DNA from: a virus
Taxonomy: Duplodnaviria; Heunggongvirae; Uroviricota; Caudoviricetes
Virus record (IMG/VR): IMGVR_UViG_2833096052_000002
Coordinates: 102,750-166,749 of that record
DNA length: 64,000 bases
Strand: one strand, 5' to 3'
Below are positions 18,957-51,647 of the stretch, piece by piece. A program made the position numbers and the translations under genes. The stretch's first letter is position 1. Every line of letters begins with the position of its first letter. The notes below the pieces were generated by a model. That model saw only the letters and a program-made list of their open reading frames with translations, was not told the DNA's origin and searched no databases.

Positions 18957-19973
18957 GTGGCACATGTAACAAGGGTAAAATATTTTACCAAGGATAAGGA
19001 GAAATTTATAAATCCTGATAACTTGAAGAAATATAAGAAGTATCTCCAATCAAATATTATAAAAAATCAGGATGTTAAAGATACTACATATAAAAGATAT
19101 GAAGGATTGTTTCGTCATTTCCTTATGTGGTTAGGTGAAAATTATGGAGATTTAGATTTGTATTCAGATGAGTTTATGGAAGATGCTGTTGATATTATGG
19201 AGAACTATATTATGTTCTGCCAAGAAACACTTCTGAATCATAAAAAGATTATTAACATGAAAATTTCTGCCGTTAGCTCATTCTATATTTGGTCTATGAA
19301 ACGTGGTTTTGTAAAATATCATCCTTTTGATGGAAAACTCGATAGAATGAAGAAAGCTAATGAGGAACATATTTTAAATTCGTATTTCCTTACAGAAGAA
19401 CAAGTTCAAACAATCCGTAGAGAGTTATCTGAAAATGATAAGTATTCAATTCAAGATCAGATTTTATTTGAGGTAAGCTTCGATTCTGCCAATAGAATTG
19501 GCGCATTGTTAAGATTGCAGTTATCCAAACTTGATTTAGAACATAACATGTTTATTGATATAAGAGAAAAGGAAGGATACCGTACACAGGTAGTTTTTGG
19601 TGATGTTGCAAAAGAACTTATTCAAGAGTGGCTTGAAATGAGAAAGAATGATTATGACCATTTGGAATGTGATTCATTGTTAATTACAAAATACAATGGA
19701 GAATATAAACCTATGGGTGATAGCGCAATCAGAGATAGAATGAAGAAATATGGTGAAATAATTGGAATTTCTGACTATAGACCTCATTGCCAACGAAAAT
19801 CTCGTCTAAATTTGGTTTATGAAGAGACTGGCGATTTAGCATTAGCAGCCGAGCTTGCCAACCACAAATCGACAGAAACAACCCGTTCCTTCTATTGTAA
19901 ACCTAAAACTAAGGCAGAAGTTATGGAAAAAATCAATGCTTTAAAAGAGAAAAATGAGGCAGAAAGTAAATAA
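18957..19973 (+). CDS. Tyrosine recombinase (XerC/D-like)
   Basis: Catalytic R (SANRIG), HxxR (HCQR), H (LANH) and Y (RSFY). Confidence 0.9.
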   Translation: MAHVTRVKYFTKDKEKFINPDNLKKYKKYLQSNIIKNQDVKDTTYKRYEGLFRHFLMWLGENYGDLDLYSDEFMEDAVDIMENYIMFCQETLLNHKKIINMKISAVSSFYIWSMKRGFVKYHPFDGKLDRMKKANEEHILNSYFLTEEQVQTIRRELSENDKYSIQDQILFEVSFDSANRIGALLRLQLSKLDLEHNMFIDIREKEGYRTQVVFGDVAKELIQEWLEMRKNDYDHLECDSLLITKYNGEYKPMGDSAIRDRMKKYGEIIGISDYRPHCQRKSRLNLVYEETGDLALAAELANHKSTETTRSFYCKPKTKAEVMEKINALKEKNEAESK

Positions 19974-42320: not shown

Positions 42321-45300
42321 ATGGCTGACGAAATAAAATTGAAAGCACCCACTGTCGAACAGCAAGTTGTTGTTAATATCAATGGTGAAGATAAATTAAA
42401 ATCATTTGCAGACACTCTTGATAAAATTTCTAATAATAAAAACCTTCAAAAATATTGGAAAACTCAACAAGATTTAATAAATGCTACTGCTGATGCTTAT
42501 GGTAATTTTCAAAAGAAAGCTTCTAAGGACAATGCTTCTGAGTTAATTAAGGTGACAAATGCGCTGAAGGCTATGTCTGGAACTGACTTATCCCATATTT
42601 TACCTGATTTTGACAAAATATCAAAGAGTATGGCTGAAGCCCAAAAGGTTGCAGGTGATATTGATAGTGCTTTTTCCGTAAAAGGATTTAAGGAAGCGTT
42701 TGATTCTTTTGAAGCATTAAAGGCGTATGGAACAGATATTCAAAAATTATTTAGTCATTTTGGTGTAAGTTCTGACATTGGTGAATTACAGCAAAATGTT
42801 CGCTTGTTAGAGGGTGAGGTAGAAAAACTCACTAGAAAATTAAGTAATGCAAGAAATGCCAATGAAGAGTTACGAAATGAATTTGAAAATTTTAAAGTTG
42901 GTTCTGGTTTTGCCGACAAATTAGATGAACTGGATAGATTAAAATTAGATATGCAAAACATTCGTAATGAAGCTATCCAGACATTTAATCAATTTTTAGA
43001 TGCAAATAAAATTGATAGATATGATTGGTTTAATGATGATCGATTTGCCGAATATTTTGAAAAATTAGAAAATGGTACTCTTACAGCTACAGATGCAATA
43101 AGACGATTTAAGTCAGAATATTCTTATCTTCTTGAAGAGAGTTATAAGTCAAGCGGAGATTCATTTGGACTAGATCAGTTACAAGCTTTTTCTACAAAAC
43201 TTGATTCAATTTTTTATCAAGTAGAGGAAACATCAAATAAAATTAATGACATTCTTTCTAATGGTGTAATCGCAAAGTCAGTACAAAATCTTAGTGAAGA
43301 CACTACTCTATCTGATTCTCAACGTTCTATATTCGGAAATATTCTTCAGGATGAAAAATCTCTCAAATCAATTACTGCTTTATTTCAGAAATTAATAGAT
43401 GAAACTAACCAGACTAAAAATACTGAAATTTGCAATACTGAGCAATTTGCAAAAATTGAATCACTATTTACAAACATTGAGTCAAGCTTATCTTCTATCA
43501 AAGGTGTCTTAGTTGATGTTGGCGATGGCGAAGAATTATCTCCACTTCTCAGTGAAATCAATAATATACAAACTGCAATTGTAGGATTATCTTCAAGTCT
43601 CAATAATCTTCATTTTAACATGAATATTGATATGGGAACAGATAATCAGATGGAAGCAAAGATCCAAGAAAAAGCTGCAAAAGCCCTCAATGCTTATGAA
43701 AAGCTTTTTAATGGATTAAAAATGTCTGGTTATGGTGGTGAAGTTGTCAATAACAAATTCTTTGATTTTGACATAAATAAATTTGACACAACAATTGGAA
43801 AAGTTAAAGCCTATAAAGATATAATCGAAAGATTAAGAAAAGAAGCCAAGGAATATTATGGTGGTACAGATTTATTACGAACTCAGACGGATGATAAATT
43901 ATGGCGTTCTGCTTCATCTGCTGGTGGTCAACTTACACAAGCAATAAATGAAACTGCTAAAAACAAGACTGATAATCCGTTGACTGAATTATTTGGAAAA
44001 ACCGATTTGTCTGGTGTTATTGAACAGTTAAATACCATTATTTCTAAGCTTGATGAGATTTCTGTATCTGCAAAAGGATTCACTGAGACATTTAAAAATG
44101 GTTTAAATGTAAATGCTTCTGTAGAGGAAATCGAAAAACTTACTAATAGAGTTAAAGAGTTAGAAGCTGAATTAGCAAAGATTAAAACTCCTGCTACCAC
44201 TATTCCGTCTGAGGACATGAAAGACGCATTTTCTAAGACCTCTGAAAACTTAGAACAGGTTGCACAATCTGAACAAAAAGTACAGCAAGAAGCTGTGGCA
44301 ACTGACAAGGCACTTGATAATATCAGTTTTACTCCTAATACAGAGGGTTTTGAAGATATAATTGCCAAGTTTGGAATACTTCGTGAGCAGGCAGAACAAA
44401 TTACAAAGATAGTTAAGACTACTAAGCAAACTGCCGATGGTACACCAAATATTTCGTATAAGGCAACATTGAGAAATGGTAGTTCTTATTATCTTGGTGA
44501 GAATAGTACACCACAAGTTTTAAATGCAAGTGAAACAGTATATGATGCAAAAGCAGATAACGCAAAGAAACTTGAGCGAGAAAAACAGATTTGGAACGAA
44601 CTTACGATTTCTCTTGAGAGATATGCTACTATTCAGAAAAGAATTGCAAGTAATAATGCTTTGAGTACAGATAATGAGGAAGCAATAAAACTTCTTGAGC
44701 ATATTCATGAATTACAGAGAAATGATATTCTTCCAACAGAGAAATTAACTGCTTCTAACGAAAAATTACAACAGATAAATCAAACTGTTACAGATTTAAA
44801 AGCGAAACTCAAAGAATCTACTCTTGATTCTTTACAAGGTTCTATTGATAAGTATCAGAAAGTCTATGATCAAAGAAAAACCTATTCTTCTGATTTTACT
44901 CCAAGTGAACAATATACCAAAAACTTAACTGAGCTAGATACAGCAATTGGAAATCTCGTAGAGTATAGAAACACATTAAAAAATGTTAGTGAAGTTACCG
45001 TAAAACAAGAGGCTGAATTAAAAGGATTGGTTATGGCATGTGAAAAAGCTTCTGATTCTTTTAAGTCACTTTCTGCCTCTGAAAAAGGTGCAAGCCAGAT
45101 TGCCATTGATAAATTAGTTCAGAGAATTAATAAGGATTTAGATGAGTGTACAAATTACTCTAAGGAAGCAAAACTTGGATTAAGAGCATTGCGAGATGAA
45201 TTAGAGTCTGCCAATCCAAGGAATCTGAAAGAGATTACATCTGAAATCATTAATATTGAAAATGCGGAAATCAGAGCTGGTCGTGCCGGTAGAAGTTTCT

Positions 45301-46505
45301 TTGACACTTTAAAGAATAGCGGATTCCATCAGATTGCTGCTCAGATGGCAGGTATGTTTGGACTTTATGATGCTATTAATATTGGTAAAGAAGGTTTTAA
45401 TGTTGTAAGAGAACTTAATACTGCTCTTACAGAAATGCGAAAAGTATCTGATGAGACTGTTCAAAGCTTGAAAGATTATCAAGTTACTACTTTCGATACG
45501 GCAGATGCGGTTGGTACAACTGCAAAACAGATACAAAATTCCACAGCAGATTGGATGCGTCTCGGAGAATCAATGAATCAAGCTGCGGAAAGTGCAAAGG
45601 ATGCAAATGTTCTTTTAAATGTATCAGAGTTTGAAGGAATAGACGAAGCAACGGAGTCTCTTGTATCAATGAGTCAGGCGTATAAAGATCTTGATAAAAT
45701 GGATATAATTGATGTTCTCAATAATATTGGCAACAATTATAGTATCTCGACAGATGGATTAGCAACTGCTCTTAAAGATTCCGCAAGTGCATTAGTAACT
45801 GCAAACAACGATCTTAATGAAGCTGTTTCGTTGACTACGGCTGGTAATGCTATAACTCAAGATCCATCTAAGGTAGGAGCAGGTTTAAGAACGATTTCTC
45901 TTAGATTGGTTGGTACAGAGGAAGCTAAACAGGAGCTTTCAGATTTAGGCGAAGAAACAGATGGAATGATTACTACTGTTTCTAAACTTAGAGATACAAT
46001 CATGGATGCAACCAAAGCTGCATCGTCAGATGGAAAGGGTTTTGATATTCTTGATTCTAATGGAAATTATAAAAGTACATATGAAATCATGCAAGGACTC
46101 GCAGATTTGTATGACAATATTGTAAAAAAAGATAAAGAACTAGGAACAAATAATCTTAATCTCTTACTGGAGACTATAGCTGGGAAAAATAGATCGAACA
46201 TTGCCGCAAGTATTCTTCAGAATGGAGATATGCTTCGTTCGGTGTATGAAGATGCTCAAAATTCAGAAGGATCAGCAGAAAAAGAATTAAACTCTTATCT
46301 TGATAGTATTGATGGCAAAATGGCACAGTTGGAGAATCGTGCCCAGGAGTTCTGGTTTAAAATAATTGACTCCGAAACTATCAAGAATGGAATTGATTTA
46401 TTATCTACACTTATTAAAGGTGCTACTGATTTTGTAGATACAGTTGGATTGTTACCAACTGTTCTTGCAGGAATTAGTACAGCACTATCATTTAAAAATG
46501 TCGGT
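42321..46505 (+). CDS. Tape measure protein, exon 1 (1395 codons, ends ...SFKNVG)
   Basis: Coiled-coil N-terminus and TMP core (ELNTALTEMRKV...GAGLRTISLRL...GSAEKE); the ORF runs 28 codons into the intron. Confidence 0.85.
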
Positions 46506-46860
46506 GGGAATAAAATGCATTTCCCGATGAATATACTCGACAACATACATAATTTACTTTGGATACAAAGGTTTAGAGTATGTTATCCGTGAGATACACG
46601 GTGATAAACACCCTATAACGTCTGAATAGACTTGTATGCCATAAACATACAACTGGGAATTACGTAAAACTCACACTACTCTCCTATTTTGGTAACAAAT
46701 TAGGCTATAGTGACAATGTGTGAACTCGTATGGTCAGGTCGGAAGCTTCCTTATTATAAGGAATAACCGCCACAGTAATGCTATGGGTGAGATTCAGTAT
46801 ATGAAATGATACTGATGAGAATAGACATTCGGTGCTATTATGGATCGTAGCCATAAAATT
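46506..46860 (+). ncRNA. Ribozyme core of the intron
   Basis: P3 CACCCTATA 46609 / TATGGGTG 46782; P7 CAGTAATG 46773 / CATTCG 46826; P8 TCAGTAT 46794 / ATACTGA 46809; P9 TATGG/CCATA. Confidence 0.65.
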
Positions 46861-46963
46861 ATGAGTTAGGAACTTATCTCCTACTTCTACGTTAAGTTTG
46901 AACCAACTGTTCCTTGGTAGATAAGATGGAACAAAAAAAGAGAATAATAAAATAGGAACTGCT

Positions 46964-47191
46964 CTACTCAGTCCCTACTTCATTTTGCTCGTGCAAATCA
47001 ACCTCTAAAGAGGTGTCATCGTATTGAGCTTTTATGCTAACTTCTTTATATTCACAAATTTTATCTGTAATGTGTTGGATTGTATTGCACACAAAGTATA
47101 CAGACGTTCCAAGCAGAGCACACACAGAGATAACTGCAATAAGTTTATATAAAGAGTTACACTTAACAGCATATTTAATCATCTTACTCAT
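46964..47191 (-). CDS. Small single-TM protein (intron cargo)
   Basis: AGGAGG RBS before ATG 47191; hydrophobic segment LIAVISVCALLGTSVYFV. Confidence 0.55.
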   Translation of the reverse strand: MSKMIKYAVKCNSLYKLIAVISVCALLGTSVYFVCNTIQHITDKICEYKEVSIKAQYDDTSLEVDLHEQNEVGTE

Positions 47192-47580
47192 AACAGTCAC
47201 CTCCTATCATTGTCTTTGTTTTGAACATCGTACTATTGATAGGTTGGTGTTTGTTTGAGGAACACCTTTTAAAAATGGAAGTGACCGTATTTTCATTTGA
47301 AGCTGTAAGTATATTATATATCATATTGGAATATTCTGGTAGAGAGAACATATATTCCAAGAAATCTCGATTTCAATTAAAAAATAAAAATGACACTACT
47401 CTATTTTGAGCAATGCCATTTTGTAGGGAATATATCTTGCTTGATATAAACATATCATAGCACATATTCTGTTATTTGCAAATACTTTTTCTGTTTCAAA
47501 CAGAGAATAATAAAATAGAGAGTAGAACACTCTACTCTCTTCTATATAAAATGATATAATATTCCCACCAGATTTTCTAA

Positions 47581-47661
47581 CTACGCACAAAGCTTAATGA
47601 CAATAATTAAAGCCATTACTGCAATGATAAAACCAGCGTTCACTTTTATCTTACATTTCAT
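47581..47661 (-). CDS. 26-aa hydrophobic peptide (intron cargo)
   Basis: AAAGGAGG RBS before ATG 47661; MKCKIKVNAGFIIAVMALIIVIKLCA. Confidence 0.5.
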   Translation of the reverse strand: MKCKIKVNAGFIIAVMALIIVIKLCA

Positions 47662-47972
47662 GGTAATTGTCCTCCTTTCATGTTTATAGACTTCTACGAA
47701 ATCCGCATTGAAAGGCATAATGCTCAAGCTAGTGCCCGATGCAACGACCATATAGTTATACTCATCTGGCTCTCCAACACTTATCTTTTGGATAAGTATT
47801 CCACCCAAGAATATTATATCACTGTTTTTTCAAGTGTAAATCCAAAACATATGTTTTGTCGATCTATGTAATACGAAAAATAATTAAAATTTTTCAAAAA
47901 TCTTTACAAAAAAATTCATTTGTGTTATCTTCAAAATAGTAAAAATTTTCAATTTTTGAAGGAGGTAACACG

Positions 47973-48950
47973 ATGAAAGTTTCAAGAGAAAATTGTCCAG
48001 TTAAGCCATTAATAGGAAAAATGAAACGAGAGAAAATTGTATTAAAGCACAAATTGCAAAGAAGAGAATCTGTTTGGTCTAATCCAAACAAATCATTGCT
48101 TATTGACTCTCTTTTAAGAGGATATATTGTACCACCAGTTTATACTATTTCTGAAGATGGTGTACAATATGTTATTGATGGTGTACAGCGATTAAGCACG
48201 TTAAAAGGATTCTATAATGATGAGTTTGCAATATCTAAAAAGGCAGAACCAGTTATAATTGAAGGAACTGAATATAGCATTGCAGGATTGAAATTTAGCA
48301 AACTTGACCAAGTTGTAAAGGACGAGTTGGACAGTTCTGCTATCACAGTATATGAAATTACGGAATATACAGACAAAGATGTAAGAGAAATGTTCCGAAG
48401 GCTCAATTCAGGAAAACCTCTGAATACTTCACAGAAGCTTACACCTGATATGTCGGATGAACTCAGTAATGCTATCTTTGATATTGTCTCTCTTCCATTT
48501 TTTGAAAAGAGACTGACATCTGCTCAGTTGAAGAGTTCAGTCGATCAGAGTATTGCACTTGAAACACTGATGCTCTGCTCCACTAATAAAGATAACGATT
48601 TTGCTTCATTTAGAGGTAAGGATAAAGAGAATTTTATCGAATTCTATAATGACAAAGTTGAACCTGAAAAGATTGAAATCATCAAAACCGCAATCAATAA
48701 ACTTGATGAATCTCTTGAAGAAGATGTAAAAATTCCAAAGACAAGTATTTCTGTATTGTGTTTTGCAGCATATAGAATTTGTAAAGACAAAAAGAGCTTT
48801 GAGAAATTTGCTTTGAAAGTAAGTGAATTCTTGACAACATACAACGATAATACTGAATACAAGAATAATCTTATGAATGGTACTAATTCTGCCGAGTCTG
48901 TCAGATTTAGATTGGATTATTGGAGAGAAATTTTAAAAACATTACAGTAA
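47973..48950 (+). CDS. DUF262-domain protein (ParB/Srx-like) (intron cargo)
   Basis: QR..VW...KSLLIDSLLRGYIVPPVY...VIDGVQRLSTL...F.RLNSG.PL. Confidence 0.85.
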   Translation: MKVSRENCPVKPLIGKMKREKIVLKHKLQRRESVWSNPNKSLLIDSLLRGYIVPPVYTISEDGVQYVIDGVQRLSTLKGFYNDEFAISKKAEPVIIEGTEYSIAGLKFSKLDQVVKDELDSSAITVYEITEYTDKDVREMFRRLNSGKPLNTSQKLTPDMSDELSNAIFDIVSLPFFEKRLTSAQLKSSVDQSIALETLMLCSTNKDNDFASFRGKDKENFIEFYNDKVEPEKIEIIKTAINKLDESLEEDVKIPKTSISVLCFAAYRICKDKKSFEKFALKVSEFLTTYNDNTEYKNNLMNGTNSAESVRFRLDYWREILKTLQ

Positions 48951-49101
48951 ATATTTAAAGAGTAGTCGGTTGGCTACTCTTCTTTCATATTTACAATATT
49001 CCTTCGAATATATGTTTTCTATAGATTTATGGTAAAAATTGGTATATAATAATACAAAGGTCATAGATGACATATAGTTTTAACTAAATAAAGGGATAAG
49101 C

Positions 49102-49443
49102 ATGTCAAAAAGAACAAATAATGGGAAACTAAAAAGCCTAAAGGACAAACATGATAAGAAAATTTCAGAAATTGCAGAACTTGAAAAGAACATTGTTAAT
49201 CAAGTTTTTGATAATTATATAGATCCAGAAGCTCAAAAAGAATTGTTGAACGATGCAAAGACTTTTCACTATTCTGAGACAAAAATATCAAATGTCCAAA
49301 AGGTATTTGAAAATTTTAATACGGACACTATCGAATATAATGTTGCTGTTGATATTATAGATATGGAAACACATATACAGCAACATAAAAAAGAAGGGCT
49401 GTTCTCCAGAATTGCCAATGTTGTAATGCCAGAAGACGACTAA
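49102..49443 (+). CDS. Hypothetical protein (intron cargo)
   Basis: 113-aa ORF with RBS. Confidence 0.65.
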   Translation: MSKRTNNGKLKSLKDKHDKKISEIAELEKNIVNQVFDNYIDPEAQKELLNDAKTFHYSETKISNVQKVFENFNTDTIEYNVAVDIIDMETHIQQHKKEGLFSRIANVVMPEDD

Positions 49444-49480
49444 CAAAAGCATAACAAGACATCAGCAAGAGGGAACATAT

Positions 49481-49804
49481 ATGAATGAATTAAATATCTA
49501 TAAAAAATTTAACTATAATAAATTATTAAAAATTTCTAATTTATATTTTAATACAAACTACAAATGGTATAATAAAAAAACGGTCTTTGCTCCTGAAAGG
49601 GGGCGATATACCGTTTCAATAAGTAGGTATAATGTTAGAATTTGTTATTGGAATGATACTTCTACCGAATTTGAAAAAGATTATTCTTTAATAAAAAAAT
49701 ACCTATTTGAAATTCTTGAAAATCAAAAAACAAATATTATTTGTTTAGGTGAATGTAATATTTTAGACAACTTTACTTTTATAAATAAAATACAATTAGG
49801 ATGA
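49481..49804 (+). CDS. Hypothetical protein (intron cargo)
   Basis: 107-aa very AT-rich ORF. Confidence 0.55.
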   Translation: MNELNIYKKFNYNKLLKISNLYFNTNYKWYNKKTVFAPERGRYTVSISRYNVRICYWNDTSTEFEKDYSLIKKYLFEILENQKTNIICLGECNILDNFTFINKIQLG

Positions 49805-49813
49805 GGTTGAGAA

Positions 49814-50224
49814 ATGAGTATACTTAGTAATGTAGAGAATACATTTGCGGAAAAAGGAATAAAATATTTGAAAGGAAATAATTCGAATTCTAATATCTTA
49901 AATGTCCCATATAGAGGTATTAATAATGAAAGTAATCATATTAATATTTATATGGATATAGATGAAGAGCAACAAGTAATAAAATTTACTTTTGAAGGAA
50001 AAGCGAATAATAATCATGAAATTTCTGATATTAAGTCAAAATTACTAGATATAAATGCTACATTAAATTTTGGAAATTTGTCAATGCGGAATGATAGTGA
50101 CACCATAGAATATCGAATTGATTACAAAGTTGAGGAAGACTCTTTTTCGTTTGATGAATACAACAAAAATATAATTCGTTGTATTAATGTTTATGAAAAT
50201 CTTAAGGAAAATGATTTGATCTAA
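49814..50224 (+). CDS. YbjN/T3SS-chaperone-fold-like protein (intron cargo)
   Basis: KLLDINATLNFGNLSMRND..IEYRIDY pattern; fold call is an inference. Confidence 0.55.
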   Translation: MSILSNVENTFAEKGIKYLKGNNSNSNILNVPYRGINNESNHINIYMDIDEEQQVIKFTFEGKANNNHEISDIKSKLLDINATLNFGNLSMRNDSDTIEYRIDYKVEEDSFSFDEYNKNIIRCINVYENLKENDLI

Positions 50225-50225
50225 T

Positions 50226-50642
50226 ATGCCAGACAATAACAATTCAAGTAAAGACAATTTTATGTACTACCTTTTTCAATTGGTTGTATGGGTTATTATG
50301 CTAATATTGATTTTATTAAGAATTTTTACATACAAAACTATATCAAACAATTGGATTTGGATTATTAATTATGCTGGAATGTCAATAGCATTCATAAATA
50401 TTTTAGTAAATAAATGTTTTAACTTAAAGGAAAAGAAAAGTAAAAAATATAAACCTTTTGTTGGATTTACTGTAGTATTGGTAGTTATAACATGTATATT
50501 GGCGATTCCTGTATGTTTATTACAAAGTAATCAATATTCTCAGTCATTAAATGATATTATTACATTATTGGCATTGTTCTTTAGTTTATCTAATGATATA
50601 TGGAATCGGATTCTTAATTTTTTTGCAAATATAATAAAGTAA
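50226..50642 (+). CDS. Four-TM membrane protein (intron cargo)
   Basis: Four hydrophobic segments. Confidence 0.7.
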   Translation: MPDNNNSSKDNFMYYLFQLVVWVIMLILILLRIFTYKTISNNWIWIINYAGMSIAFINILVNKCFNLKEKKSKKYKPFVGFTVVLVVITCILAIPVCLLQSNQYSQSLNDIITLLALFFSLSNDIWNRILNFFANIIK

Positions 50643-50669
50643 AGAGCAGGATTAATCTCCTGCTCTTTT
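50641..50669. terminator. Bidirectional intrinsic terminator between convergent cargo units
   Basis: AAAGAGCAGGA-TTAATC-TCCTGCTCTTTT. Confidence 0.75.
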
Positions 50670-50871
50670 AATATTCTCACTACTCTTCCATCCTATTTAA
50701 ATTTTGAAACGCTCTATCAAATTCATCACATATTATCATTTTTACAGCAGAATATACAATCAAGTCTTTTTCATTGTCGGTAAGTGTTCTGATGTAATTT
50801 TTTAGTTCTTCATCATTCATGTTTCTCATTAAAAATATTTTGTCTGTTAATTTTGACATATTGGTATTCTC

Positions 50872-51207
50872 TTATTCTTCTGATTTACCCAATTCTTCTT
50901 CCATTTTATCAAAATCTAATCCATATCTCTTTTCAAGTTCGTTAAGTATATTATATATACCTTTACCAATGAATAAATGATTAGATCCGAATACATACTT
51001 CATAGTATGAATTTCTGATGGAGAAATTGAAGTAATAGAGCCACGGTATGTTCTCATATTTTCTTTTTGATATACTTTTACAGGATATCTATATCCAAGA
51101 CCTTCGATTCCTGTATAACCATCATACGAATTTGGATTATAACACTCTCTTCCAACTTCATATTCAAGTTTGGCTATTAGTGATGCAATGTTCTGGGTAT
51201 TTTTCAT
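50872..51207 (-). CDS. Hypothetical protein (intron cargo)
   Basis: GGGAGG RBS, 111 aa. Confidence 0.7.
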   Translation of the reverse strand: MKNTQNIASLIAKLEYEVGRECYNPNSYDGYTGIEGLGYRYPVKVYQKENMRTYRGSITSISPSEIHTMKYVFGSNHLFIGKGIYNILNELEKRYGLDFDKMEEELGKSEE

Positions 51208-51222
51208 TGGTGTTACCTCCCT

Positions 51223-51580
51223 TTAAAAATCTGAATTGCATGAATTACAGTGCCACTGCTTACCTATCTTCTTACTTGCTAATCCGAACATAGCAGTTGA
51301 AGTCATGCGACTTACTGTACCAATTTTTGATGTATTGGTTGAATGACAGTATGGACACTCGACTTTTGGTTTTGATAAAGGAAAATTCGGATCTTCCATT
51401 GGATTATATTTTGGTTGATTTTTACGTTGTTCAGCTAATTCTGTATCGCAATCAACATTATCTATAAAATTTAATCTTCCACCACACTTCAAACAAAATT
51501 TACTATACGGTTTAGATGATTCAAAAAAATAAATTTTTCCACATTGTTTGCATTCTAACATATCTTTGTTAATTATCATG
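51223..51580 (-). CDS. Multi-Zn-ribbon protein (intron cargo)
   Basis: CKQC, CLKC, CPYC, CNSC; AGGAGGG RBS before ATG 51580. Confidence 0.75.
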
Positions 51581-51604
51581 TAATTACCCTCCTGATTATT
51601 ATTT

Positions 51605-51633
51605 ATTATACTCTTCAAACAAGTATAAAGCAA
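51605..51633 (-). promoter_or_regulatory. sigmaA promoter antisense to the tape measure transcript, 14 nt from the 3' splice site
   Basis: Minus strand TTGCTT-17 nt-TATAAT. Confidence 0.65.
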
Positions 51634-51647
51634 TTAAAAATAGTACG

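Follow-up and report, generated by a model that had tools for sequence, protein, structure and literature searches.

Why should a 4.7 kb island of small genes lie between two very long open reading frames (ORFs), 42321-46592 and 52005-57296, that together resemble a single phage tape-measure gene? The question arises from IMG/VR record IMGVR_UViG_2833096052_000002, of which a stretch of 64,000 nucleotides (the window) was analysed. The record is a provirus of ~178 kb with a CheckV completeness of 100, and the phage is a temperate low-GC siphophage from gut-type samples. The window has ~31% GC and seven tRNA genes, and its tail genes are similar to those of large Firmicute siphophages, including Brevibacillus phage Sundance, Enterocloster phages and the Lactococcus 949 group. 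From the comparison of related loci, the segment 46506-51647 is probably a 5,142-nt group I-type intron that splices out of the tape-measure gene and holds a variable cargo of accessory genes.

The two long ORFs appear to be one gene, split at 46505/46506 and 51647/51648. The first of them (ORF1), with a strong ribosome-binding site (RBS; TAGGAGG) upstream of 42321, is annotated past the end of the putative exon 1 into the intron, where it meets a stop at 46592. The tape-measure protein of Sundance, a single ORF of 2,528 amino acids (aa), matches ORF1 through ...SFKNVGG, and the alignment resumes a few residues later in the open frame upstream of the ATG of the second ORF (ORF2), colinear over the break. 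In the distant relatives L076 and L073 the gene is uninterrupted, and in L076 it is one ORF of 5,413 codons. The last codons of exon 1, ...AAT GTC GGT (...KNVG), and the first of exon 2, ATA TTC ACA... (IFTTIQ...), give ...ALSFKNVG-IFTTIQNDTSK... when 46505 is joined to 51648, and this product aligns without a gap across the junction both with L076 (42% identity over 256 residues) and with Sundance. The exon 2 frame is already open upstream of 51600 and has an open length of 1,884 codons; neither 51648 nor the ATG at 52005 is preceded by a Shine-Dalgarno sequence, and exon 2 has no usable start codon at its beginning. The colinearity with Sundance, the uninterrupted homologs, the alignment of the joined product and the missing start signals of exon 2 thus all argue for a single gene. 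The junction of the spliced mRNA would read ...AATGTCGGT joined to ATATTCACA..., with NVGIFTTIQNDTSK as the predicted junction peptide.

Related loci place the interruption at the same codon. Altogether 79 such loci were fetched, 44 of which have both junctions, reducing to 39 distinct introns. Nucleotide homology to the window ends at 46504/46505 in nearly all 79, and a stop soon after the insertion codon marks 77 of the 79 as interrupted there. Only the two most distant relatives (~60% identity) are intron-less at this codon, and the intron is fixed in the clade. Among the 44 loci with both junctions, exon 1 ends in ...GG(T/C); the intron has ...AGTA(C/T)G as its 3′ terminus, adjoining ATATTCA... 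or ATA..., and its last nucleotide is G in every case, as in the window (51647).

Both exon ends are matched by a guide near the 5′ end of the intron. Some 22-37 nt into the window copy stands TGAATAT-AC-TCGACA, in which the P10 part precedes the P1 part, side by side and in canonical group I order. The P10 guide TGAATAT (46528-46534) is complementary to ATATTCA (51648-51654), the first seven nucleotides of exon 2, and has equivalents at the same position in the L003, L005, L032 and L014 classes; it shows no covariation, the start of exon 2 being invariant. The P1 guide TCGACA (46537-46542) pairs with TGTCGG (46499-46504) at the end of exon 1. At least seven intron lineages occupy this codon, and in at least six of them the P1 guide tracks synonymous changes in the exon: the exon 1 end GTCGGT is found with the guide GCCGAC, GTTGGT with GCCAAC, GTAGGT with GCCTAT, GTGGGT with GCCCAC, TTGGGT with GCTCAA, and GCGGTGGT with GCTACCGT. 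Each of these six guides begins with the G that forms a U.G wobble, and the U.G splice-site pair is present in seven lineages other than that of the window.

The first ~430 nt of the intron form a structured region, of which the relatives show three related classes. RNAalifold, run on 20 sequences from the three classes, returned 52 pairs; compensatory changes support 23 of these, among them pairs of P7 (alignment columns 305-308/355-358), of P8 (columns 319-329/338-348) and of a pseudoknot in the P9-type domain (columns 451-455/474-478; Table 1). The order P3-P7-P3′-P8-J8/7-P7′ suggests a group I pseudoknot and marks this part as the candidate core. P7 takes the form C-bulge-G-bulge-stem in all three classes, as read by eye and in three independent lineages only; in group I introns, a bulged nucleotide beside a G-C pair of P7 is the guanosine site. 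The P9-type domain that follows is composed of two hairpins (46834-46851 and 46852-46863) and a helix (46873-46879 with 46919-46925) that encloses a conserved GTTTGA (46896-46901) and the hairpin 46902-46918. The loop of this last hairpin, GTTCC, pairs with GGAAC (46928-46932), and the pseudoknot survives a double change in L006/L017, where ATCCC stands with GGGAT.

At the other end, only ~42 nt separate the cargo from exon 2. They include a hairpin with the stem 51606-51612 with 51622-51628 and the loop CTTCAAACA (51613-51621). The hairpin is present in 42 of the 44 relatives, where at least 10 different stems, all complementary, carry the constant loop (N)YTCAAACA. This loop is complementary over 6 bp to the GTTTGA of the P9-type domain; both observed loop variants, UCAAGC and UCAAAU, still pair via G.U, and the receptor and loop together also accompany a fourth, unrelated ribozyme core (L013 type). 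Such a pairing would act over a long range, docking the 3′ hairpin so that the distant splice site reaches the core.

It is proposed, then, that the late transcript runs through the cargo island, that the guide, lying close to the 5′ end of the intron, forms P1 with the last nucleotides of exon 1 and P10 with the first of exon 2, and that the distant 3′ hairpin docks with its UCAAAC loop on the GUUUGA of the P9-type domain and so presents the 3′ splice site to the core. Splicing would yield a single tape-measure protein of 3,280 residues. Whatever lies between the P9-type domain and the 3′ hairpin would be removed from the mRNA, and this removal would make the gain, loss or exchange of genes there harmless to the essential tail gene. 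The initial annotation's further idea, that virion assembly might thereby be tied to keeping the intron, is speculative. The slot would be filled with prophage accessory genes of the moron, exclusion or defence type, shuffled at conserved promoter/terminator joints. As many different gene sets occur in the same shell in some 40 related phages, the intron seems to be a safe slot for accessory genes.

The initial annotation had read the region 46860-51640 as an intron loop with about nine accessory ORFs on both strands, each with its own RBS. Nine credible ORFs are indeed found there, arranged on both strands as independent cassettes in five transcription units, and clear Shine-Dalgarno sequences precede most of them. 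All nine fall between the inferred splice sites, within the segment that would be spliced out, and between the ribozyme (~430 nt) and the 3′ hairpin; they are also 3′ to the catalytic core, downstream of the 3′ strand of P7 (ending at 46831) and of the P9-type domain (ending near 46932), so that their earlier assignment to the P9 region is reasonable. The ORFs 47396-47590 and 47581-47808, both with a TTG start, lack an RBS and are doubtful. The four-gene operon (49102..50642) is very AT-rich and occurs in the window only among the 39 introns. Terminators, also claimed for the island, are well supported, with six terminator-like hairpins compared to 1.6 +/- 1.3 in shuffles, located at cassette ends. 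Promoter-like sites, of which the initial annotation had claimed one of the sigmaA type, are not enriched as a whole (47 compared to 37 +/- 7); one on the minus strand (47840-47813, 11 of 12 positions) is near-consensus.

Table 1. Features of the split tape-measure gene, its putative intron and the cargo island, in window positions unless stated otherwise.
Feature	Position	Strand	Details
Tape-measure exon 1	42321..46505	+	homology to 77 relatives breaks at 46504/46505; alignment to Sundance and L076 tape-measure proteins up to 46505
Intron 5′ end	46506..46542	+	P1 extension hairpin (46506-46510 with 46521-46525) and internal guide sequence
Peripheral 5′ helices	46543..46729	+	RNAalifold and by-eye reading
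P2	46543-46548 with 46578-46583		compensatory changes (RNAalifold)
P2a	within 46543..46729		compensatory changes (RNAalifold)
P2.1	46587-46591 with 46597-46601		compensatory changes (RNAalifold)
Long hairpin	46672-46676 with 46718-46722		encloses 46683-46704; between-class covariation, read by eye
Candidate catalytic core	46730..46831	+	P3-P7-P3′-P8-J8/7-P7′ order
P3	46730-46733 with 46781-46784		register shifts between classes
P4/P5-like hairpin	46737-46771		A-rich internal loops; between P3 and P7
P7	46773-46780 with 46826-46831		two bulged nt; compensatory changes
P8	46794-46799 with 46810-46815		compensatory changes
J8/7	46816-46825		10 nt
P9-type 3′ domain	46832..46935	+	conserved across three ribozyme classes
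Terminator	46984-46946	-	belongs to the 78-aa ORF
Cargo ORF, 78 aa	46964..47200	-	small, membrane-type; family in 7 introns
Terminator	47422-47387	-	
Terminator	47540-47517	-	
Near-consensus promoter	47840-47813	-	TTTACA-16-TATAAT, extended TG, 11 of 12
Divergent promoter/leader region	47810..47970	.	upstream of DUF262 gene; kept in most relatives even where the gene diverged
Cargo NsnA-like protein (DUF262 gene), 325 aa	47973..48950	+	Shine-Dalgarno GAAGGAGG before 47973
Terminator	48958-48981	+	after DUF262 gene
Cargo operon gene 1, 113 aa	49102-49443	+	
Cargo operon gene 2, 107 aa	49481-49804	+	
Cargo operon gene 3, 136 aa	49814-50224	+	
Cargo operon gene 4, 138 aa	50226-50642	+	multi-pass membrane protein; translationally coupled to preceding ORF
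Terminator, bidirectional	50641-50668	both	cassette joint; 90-97% conserved in >35 relatives with differing flanking genes
Cargo minus-strand trio, 59-aa ORF	50680-50859	-	
Cargo minus-strand trio, 111-aa ORF	50872-51207	-	Shine-Dalgarno AAGGGAGG before 51207
Cargo minus-strand trio, 118-aa protein	51223-51579	-	double zinc-ribbon protein; Shine-Dalgarno CAGGAGGG before 51579
Intron 3′ end	51606..51647	+	hairpin, A/T-rich linker, ATAGTACG with terminal G 51647
Tape-measure exon 2	51648..57296	+	open frame; joined protein aligns across junction
Tyrosine-recombinase genes	window ~19386-19901; genome positions 77129-77587 and 175029-175508		one within window

One cargo gene of the window matches a defence family. 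Its NsnA-like product matches the PADLOC profile NsnA (6.9e-32, residues 2-323 against positions 45-381 of 385), Pfam GmrSD_N (5e-17) and PHROG 2598, and consists of a ParB/DUF262 NTPase domain and a helical C-terminal part, with no recognisable nuclease domain. For the remaining eight ORFs, searches of Pfam, PHROGs, PADLOC and NCBIfam gave no family. As the initial annotation had stated for LAGLIDADG, HNH and GIY-YIG motifs, the window ORFs contain no such family, nor a His-Cys or NUMOD family, and no homing-endonuclease family occurs among 51 pooled cargo families from the relatives. NsnA itself combines a ParB-DUF262 NTPase with a helical DNA-binding domain and is the sensor of the three-gene Menshen system NsnA/NsnB/NsnC (PMC12065111). 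The cargo protein resembles it over nearly the full length of the profile, but no NsnB ABC ATPase or NsnC effector is adjacent, and the downstream ORFs of 107-138 aa match no ATPase or nuclease family.

Between relatives the cargo changes extensively, and the core and both ends stay constant, as the initial annotation had expected. The 39 distinct introns range from 3.2 to 8.9 kb and hold 116 ORF families. The 25 introns of the largest ribozyme class share a core of 97-99% identity and carry 15 cargo architectures; in turn, one cargo architecture is found behind two different ribozyme cores. The only common cargo families are the NsnA-like family, in 32 of the 39 introns, and a zinc-ribbon family, in 26, which always adjoins the intron 3′ end. 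The minimal introns in L038/L044 carry the zinc-ribbon gene as sole cargo, and an alternative first cargo gene, F25, is unrelated to the NsnA-like gene. Minus-strand genes that adjoin the 3′ end in relatives are often of the lipoprotein or membrane type. According to PADLOC and Pfam, the pooled cargo families include NsnA-like, ToxN/AbiQ, PemK/MazF and NYN nuclease families, a CapP-like peptidase with a CapH-like HTH protein, and DUF3800, DUF4145, DUF6173 and DUF3825. From these family names in relatives, the cargo may function in exclusion, as toxins or in defence. The earlier claim of a hotspot for morons or defence genes draws support from the ToxN/AbiQ, MazF and CapP/CapH relatives in the pooled cargo; in the window itself it finds the NsnA-like match only.

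The cassettes are separated by short conserved sequences. The promoter/terminator blocks 47837-47970, 48912-49055 and 50627-50697 are kept where the intervening genes differ, and within them 50641-50668, 47837-47970 and 48912-49055 are 75-97% conserved in dozens of relatives with differing flanking genes. Contigs of another, independent sample break at the module borders 46480/46932, 50674 and 51660, which argues for cassette exchange by recombination at conserved joints. The conserved blocks look like these joints. The one raw RNA run that was compared gave 0 reads.

Several observations weigh against a splicing intron whose cargo is freely exchanged. The recurrence of the NsnA-like (32/39) and zinc-ribbon (26/39) families means that cargo content is not wholly free. 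In the ribozyme, a convincing P4-P6 domain and a clear P6 could not be made out, only one hairpin at 46737-46771 and the long hairpin upstream of it (46672-46722). The Rfam group I model RF00028 gives no match to the 551-nt 5′ part, either at the gathering score or at E=10, and Rfam scans of the window, a 6.6-kb region, the 551-nt 5′ part and ten relatives returned no group I or group II match. This miss counts little because Rfam also misses sister introns at the same codon that have canonical R/S-type core sequences (L028, L013, L025/L026). P1 matches within a single lineage are unremarkable compared to shuffles (p 0.03-0.5); the P1 argument holds because the position of the guide is constant (+33 to +43) and because guide and exon covary. 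A U.G pair at the 5′ splice site is near-universal in group I introns, and the window copy lacks it: the splice-site U (46505) faces C, or A with one bulge, and the intron may splice poorly. The commonest class (L014) has C facing A at the splice site. Finally, a transcript on its way from the core to exon 2 would meet two plus-strand terminator hairpins and a minus-strand cassette in convergent orientation, so that late read-through or trans-splicing must be assumed.

Of these two, trans-splicing would make the element a split intron, with exon 1 and the ribozyme on one transcript, which an internal terminator would end, and exon 2 with the 3′ hairpin on another that starts within the intron. 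The halves would meet through P10 and the loop-receptor pairing, and the island would never be part of the precursor RNA. The plus-strand terminators after 48950 and at 50641-50668 and the convergent cassette would be accommodated, and the only links found between the intron ends, P10 (7 bp) and GUUUGA with UCAAAC (6 bp), are pairings of the intermolecular type. A weak plus-strand promoter-like site is present at 51573-51602, but transcription from it would begin within the 3′ hairpin; no plus-strand promoter motif is conserved before this hairpin, and the upstream 45 nt of the relatives are unrelated. Terminator read-through late in infection is common in large phages, and we know of no natural trans-splicing group I intron in bacteria or phages. 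We consider trans-splicing unlikely. The missing U.G pair raises a different concern, that the ribozyme of this prophage splices poorly or not at all, which would leave a broken tail gene, a defective prophage and an island that is an insertion in a dead gene. Only the window copy has the guide variant ATACTCGACA, in which the pair is abolished. However, exon 2 has remained open over 1,884 codons in a genome of 31% GC, P3, P7, P8, P10 and the 3′ hairpin are intact, and CheckV completeness is 100; the most abundant class (30 contigs) is also without U.G, with C opposite A, and the non-canonical pair seems to be tolerated. A dead or weak ribozyme has only a small chance of being the right explanation.

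Splicing could also be dispensed with altogether, if two separate tape-measure polypeptides were made and the morons lay between two genes. ORF1 has its own stop at 46592, the ATG at 52005 opens an ORF of 1,763 codons, and Rfam reports no intron. Such a pair of genes would nevertheless lack an RBS before 52005 or 51648 and would lose ~120 conserved codons upstream of 52005, its homologs are single genes, and nothing would account for the structured 430-nt leader, the conserved G at the intron end, or the guide pairings with both exons and the covariation in them; we regard this arrangement as quite improbable. Removal of the 5.1-kb segment as DNA before late expression, as a transposon or by a recombinase, would suit a cargo that is mosaic and mobile among relatives, and the record does hold three tyrosine-recombinase (phage integrase family) genes. 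None of the three is within the intron, where no recombinase or transposase is found, the junctions have no terminal direct or inverted repeats, and the segment ends show covariation of the RNA type, which makes a DNA element very hard to believe. A group I-type intron with exchangeable cargo is the reading that we prefer.

Other kinds of insertion were considered and rejected. A group II intron would be expected to show a reverse transcriptase, a GUGYG start and a domain V, none of which is present; an intein is excluded by stop codons and a frame change, and translational bypass by the length of the insert, as 5 kb is far too long. Neither the NsnA-like nor the zinc-ribbon protein was accepted as an intron mobility factor, since neither is universal (32/39 and 26/39). 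For the NsnA-like protein, the unrelated F25 as alternative first gene, the minimal introns in L038/L044 and the absence of a nuclease domain also oppose this role. The segment further differs from a mobile homing intron in having no intron endonuclease and no intron-less alleles in close relatives.

The usual view of phage introns is that of small selfish elements, each with one endonuclease gene. Phage group I introns with an ORF 3′ of the core, such as T4 nrdD/sunY, carry one homing-endonuclease gene of ~0.7-1 kb. The putative intron of the window shares with this type its place in an essential phage gene, the 5′ core, a coding loop downstream of P7/P9, a remote 3′ domain that would dock, the P1 and P10 guide pairings and the terminal G. 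It differs in its 4.7 kb of cargo, where nine genes make up five units on the two strands and none is of an endonuclease family, in a cargo that varies between near-identical ribozymes, in the absent U.G pair and in a core that is missed by Rfam. As a site for accessory genes it can be compared with the moron and defence hotspots of phages such as P2/P4, which are intergenic. Both have conserved flanks and variable cassettes that bring their own promoters and terminators and in many cases run antisense to the late operon, and both are enriched in exclusion, toxin and defence genes. Unlike those hotspots, the slot in the window lies inside the tape-measure coding sequence, and its harmlessness would depend on RNA splicing.

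The closest analogue is the hexacoral mitochondrial group I intron ND5-717, a ribozyme that tolerates a multi-gene insert. It holds many unrelated genes in a peripheral loop and reaches 18-19 kb in mushroom corals; these are essential genes of the organelle, located in P8 in a fixed arrangement, and the intron is removed by back-splicing of a permuted transcript (PMC6545197). In the window, by comparison, the genes are accessory ones that phages exchange, and they occupy both strands of the P9 region. On the suggestion in the initial annotation that the system is undescribed, our literature search found no paper on phage introns that hold morons or DUF262 genes, or on an intron as an accessory-gene island, but a multi-gene intron is known from corals.

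A broader proposal, to which we give somewhat less than an even chance, is that group I introns in phage structural genes are an unrecognised class of accessory-gene hotspot. The intron shell would have outlived its endonuclease and been kept because it licenses an exchangeable island of several kilobases, which would be inherited with an indispensable gene; the UCAAAC/GUUUGA contact would find the 3′ site across 3-9 kb or on a separate transcript. In a whole clade of large gut phages the shell is fixed, and the genes swapped within it amount to 3-9 kb and include relatives of abortive-infection toxins and defence sensors. Annotation pipelines report such genes as two tape-measure fragments and a number of hypothetical proteins. 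If splicing is confirmed, apparently broken structural genes would become a new place to seek phage accessory and anti-phage genes, and the intron would be a bacterial-world counterpart of the giant coral mitochondrial intron. How a ribozyme locates a splice site that is kilobases distant, past terminators and antisense transcription, could also be studied in this natural system. The arrangement suggests a practical design as well, in which payloads are inserted in essential phage genes without disrupting them.

Searches for the intron outside this phage group added little. Megablast and blastn searches of the region and the core against 50,697 phage records gave nothing useful, and a scan of viral contigs with a P9-motif pattern returned only the same phage group and chance matches, with no intron copy in another gene.

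Some smaller features were seen in the relatives. Introns of different ribozyme types occupy exactly the same codon in L028 (L028:11188-11600), L013/L023 (~540-740 nt into the introns) and L025/L026; some have a textbook CAGAGAC...ATAGTCC core, and they have cargo cassettes in common with the window. The Rfam group I model misses all of them. In the L005/L014/L013/L025 classes, the element AAACCAAG(A/T)AAATCTCGATTTC stands just after the P9-type domain (e.g., L014:11600-11630); it is not found in the window. The loop of the 3′ hairpin (YTCAAACA, window 51613-51621) resembles the sequence with which exon 2 begins in relatives (ATATTCAAAACA; window 51648-51659). Just 5′ of the guide, several classes have TGTTTTGAA, which could pair with either the 3′ hairpin loop or the exon 2 start, and this pairing may be alternative or regulatory.

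The tape-measure gene is also variable beyond this codon. Its ORF in L076 (L076:4439-20677), uninterrupted over its 5,413 codons, is exceptionally long. L079 has another insertion in the same gene (L079:10663-12180, ~window 45920), 1.7 kb in length; its 428-aa ORF has the NUMOD1 and I-HmuI-like domains that homing endonucleases typically carry. A further insertion, of 3.2 kb, is found in L031 (L031:11017-14227, ~window 46317), and its 841-aa ORF matches no known family. The tape-measure gene seems to be an intron hotspot.

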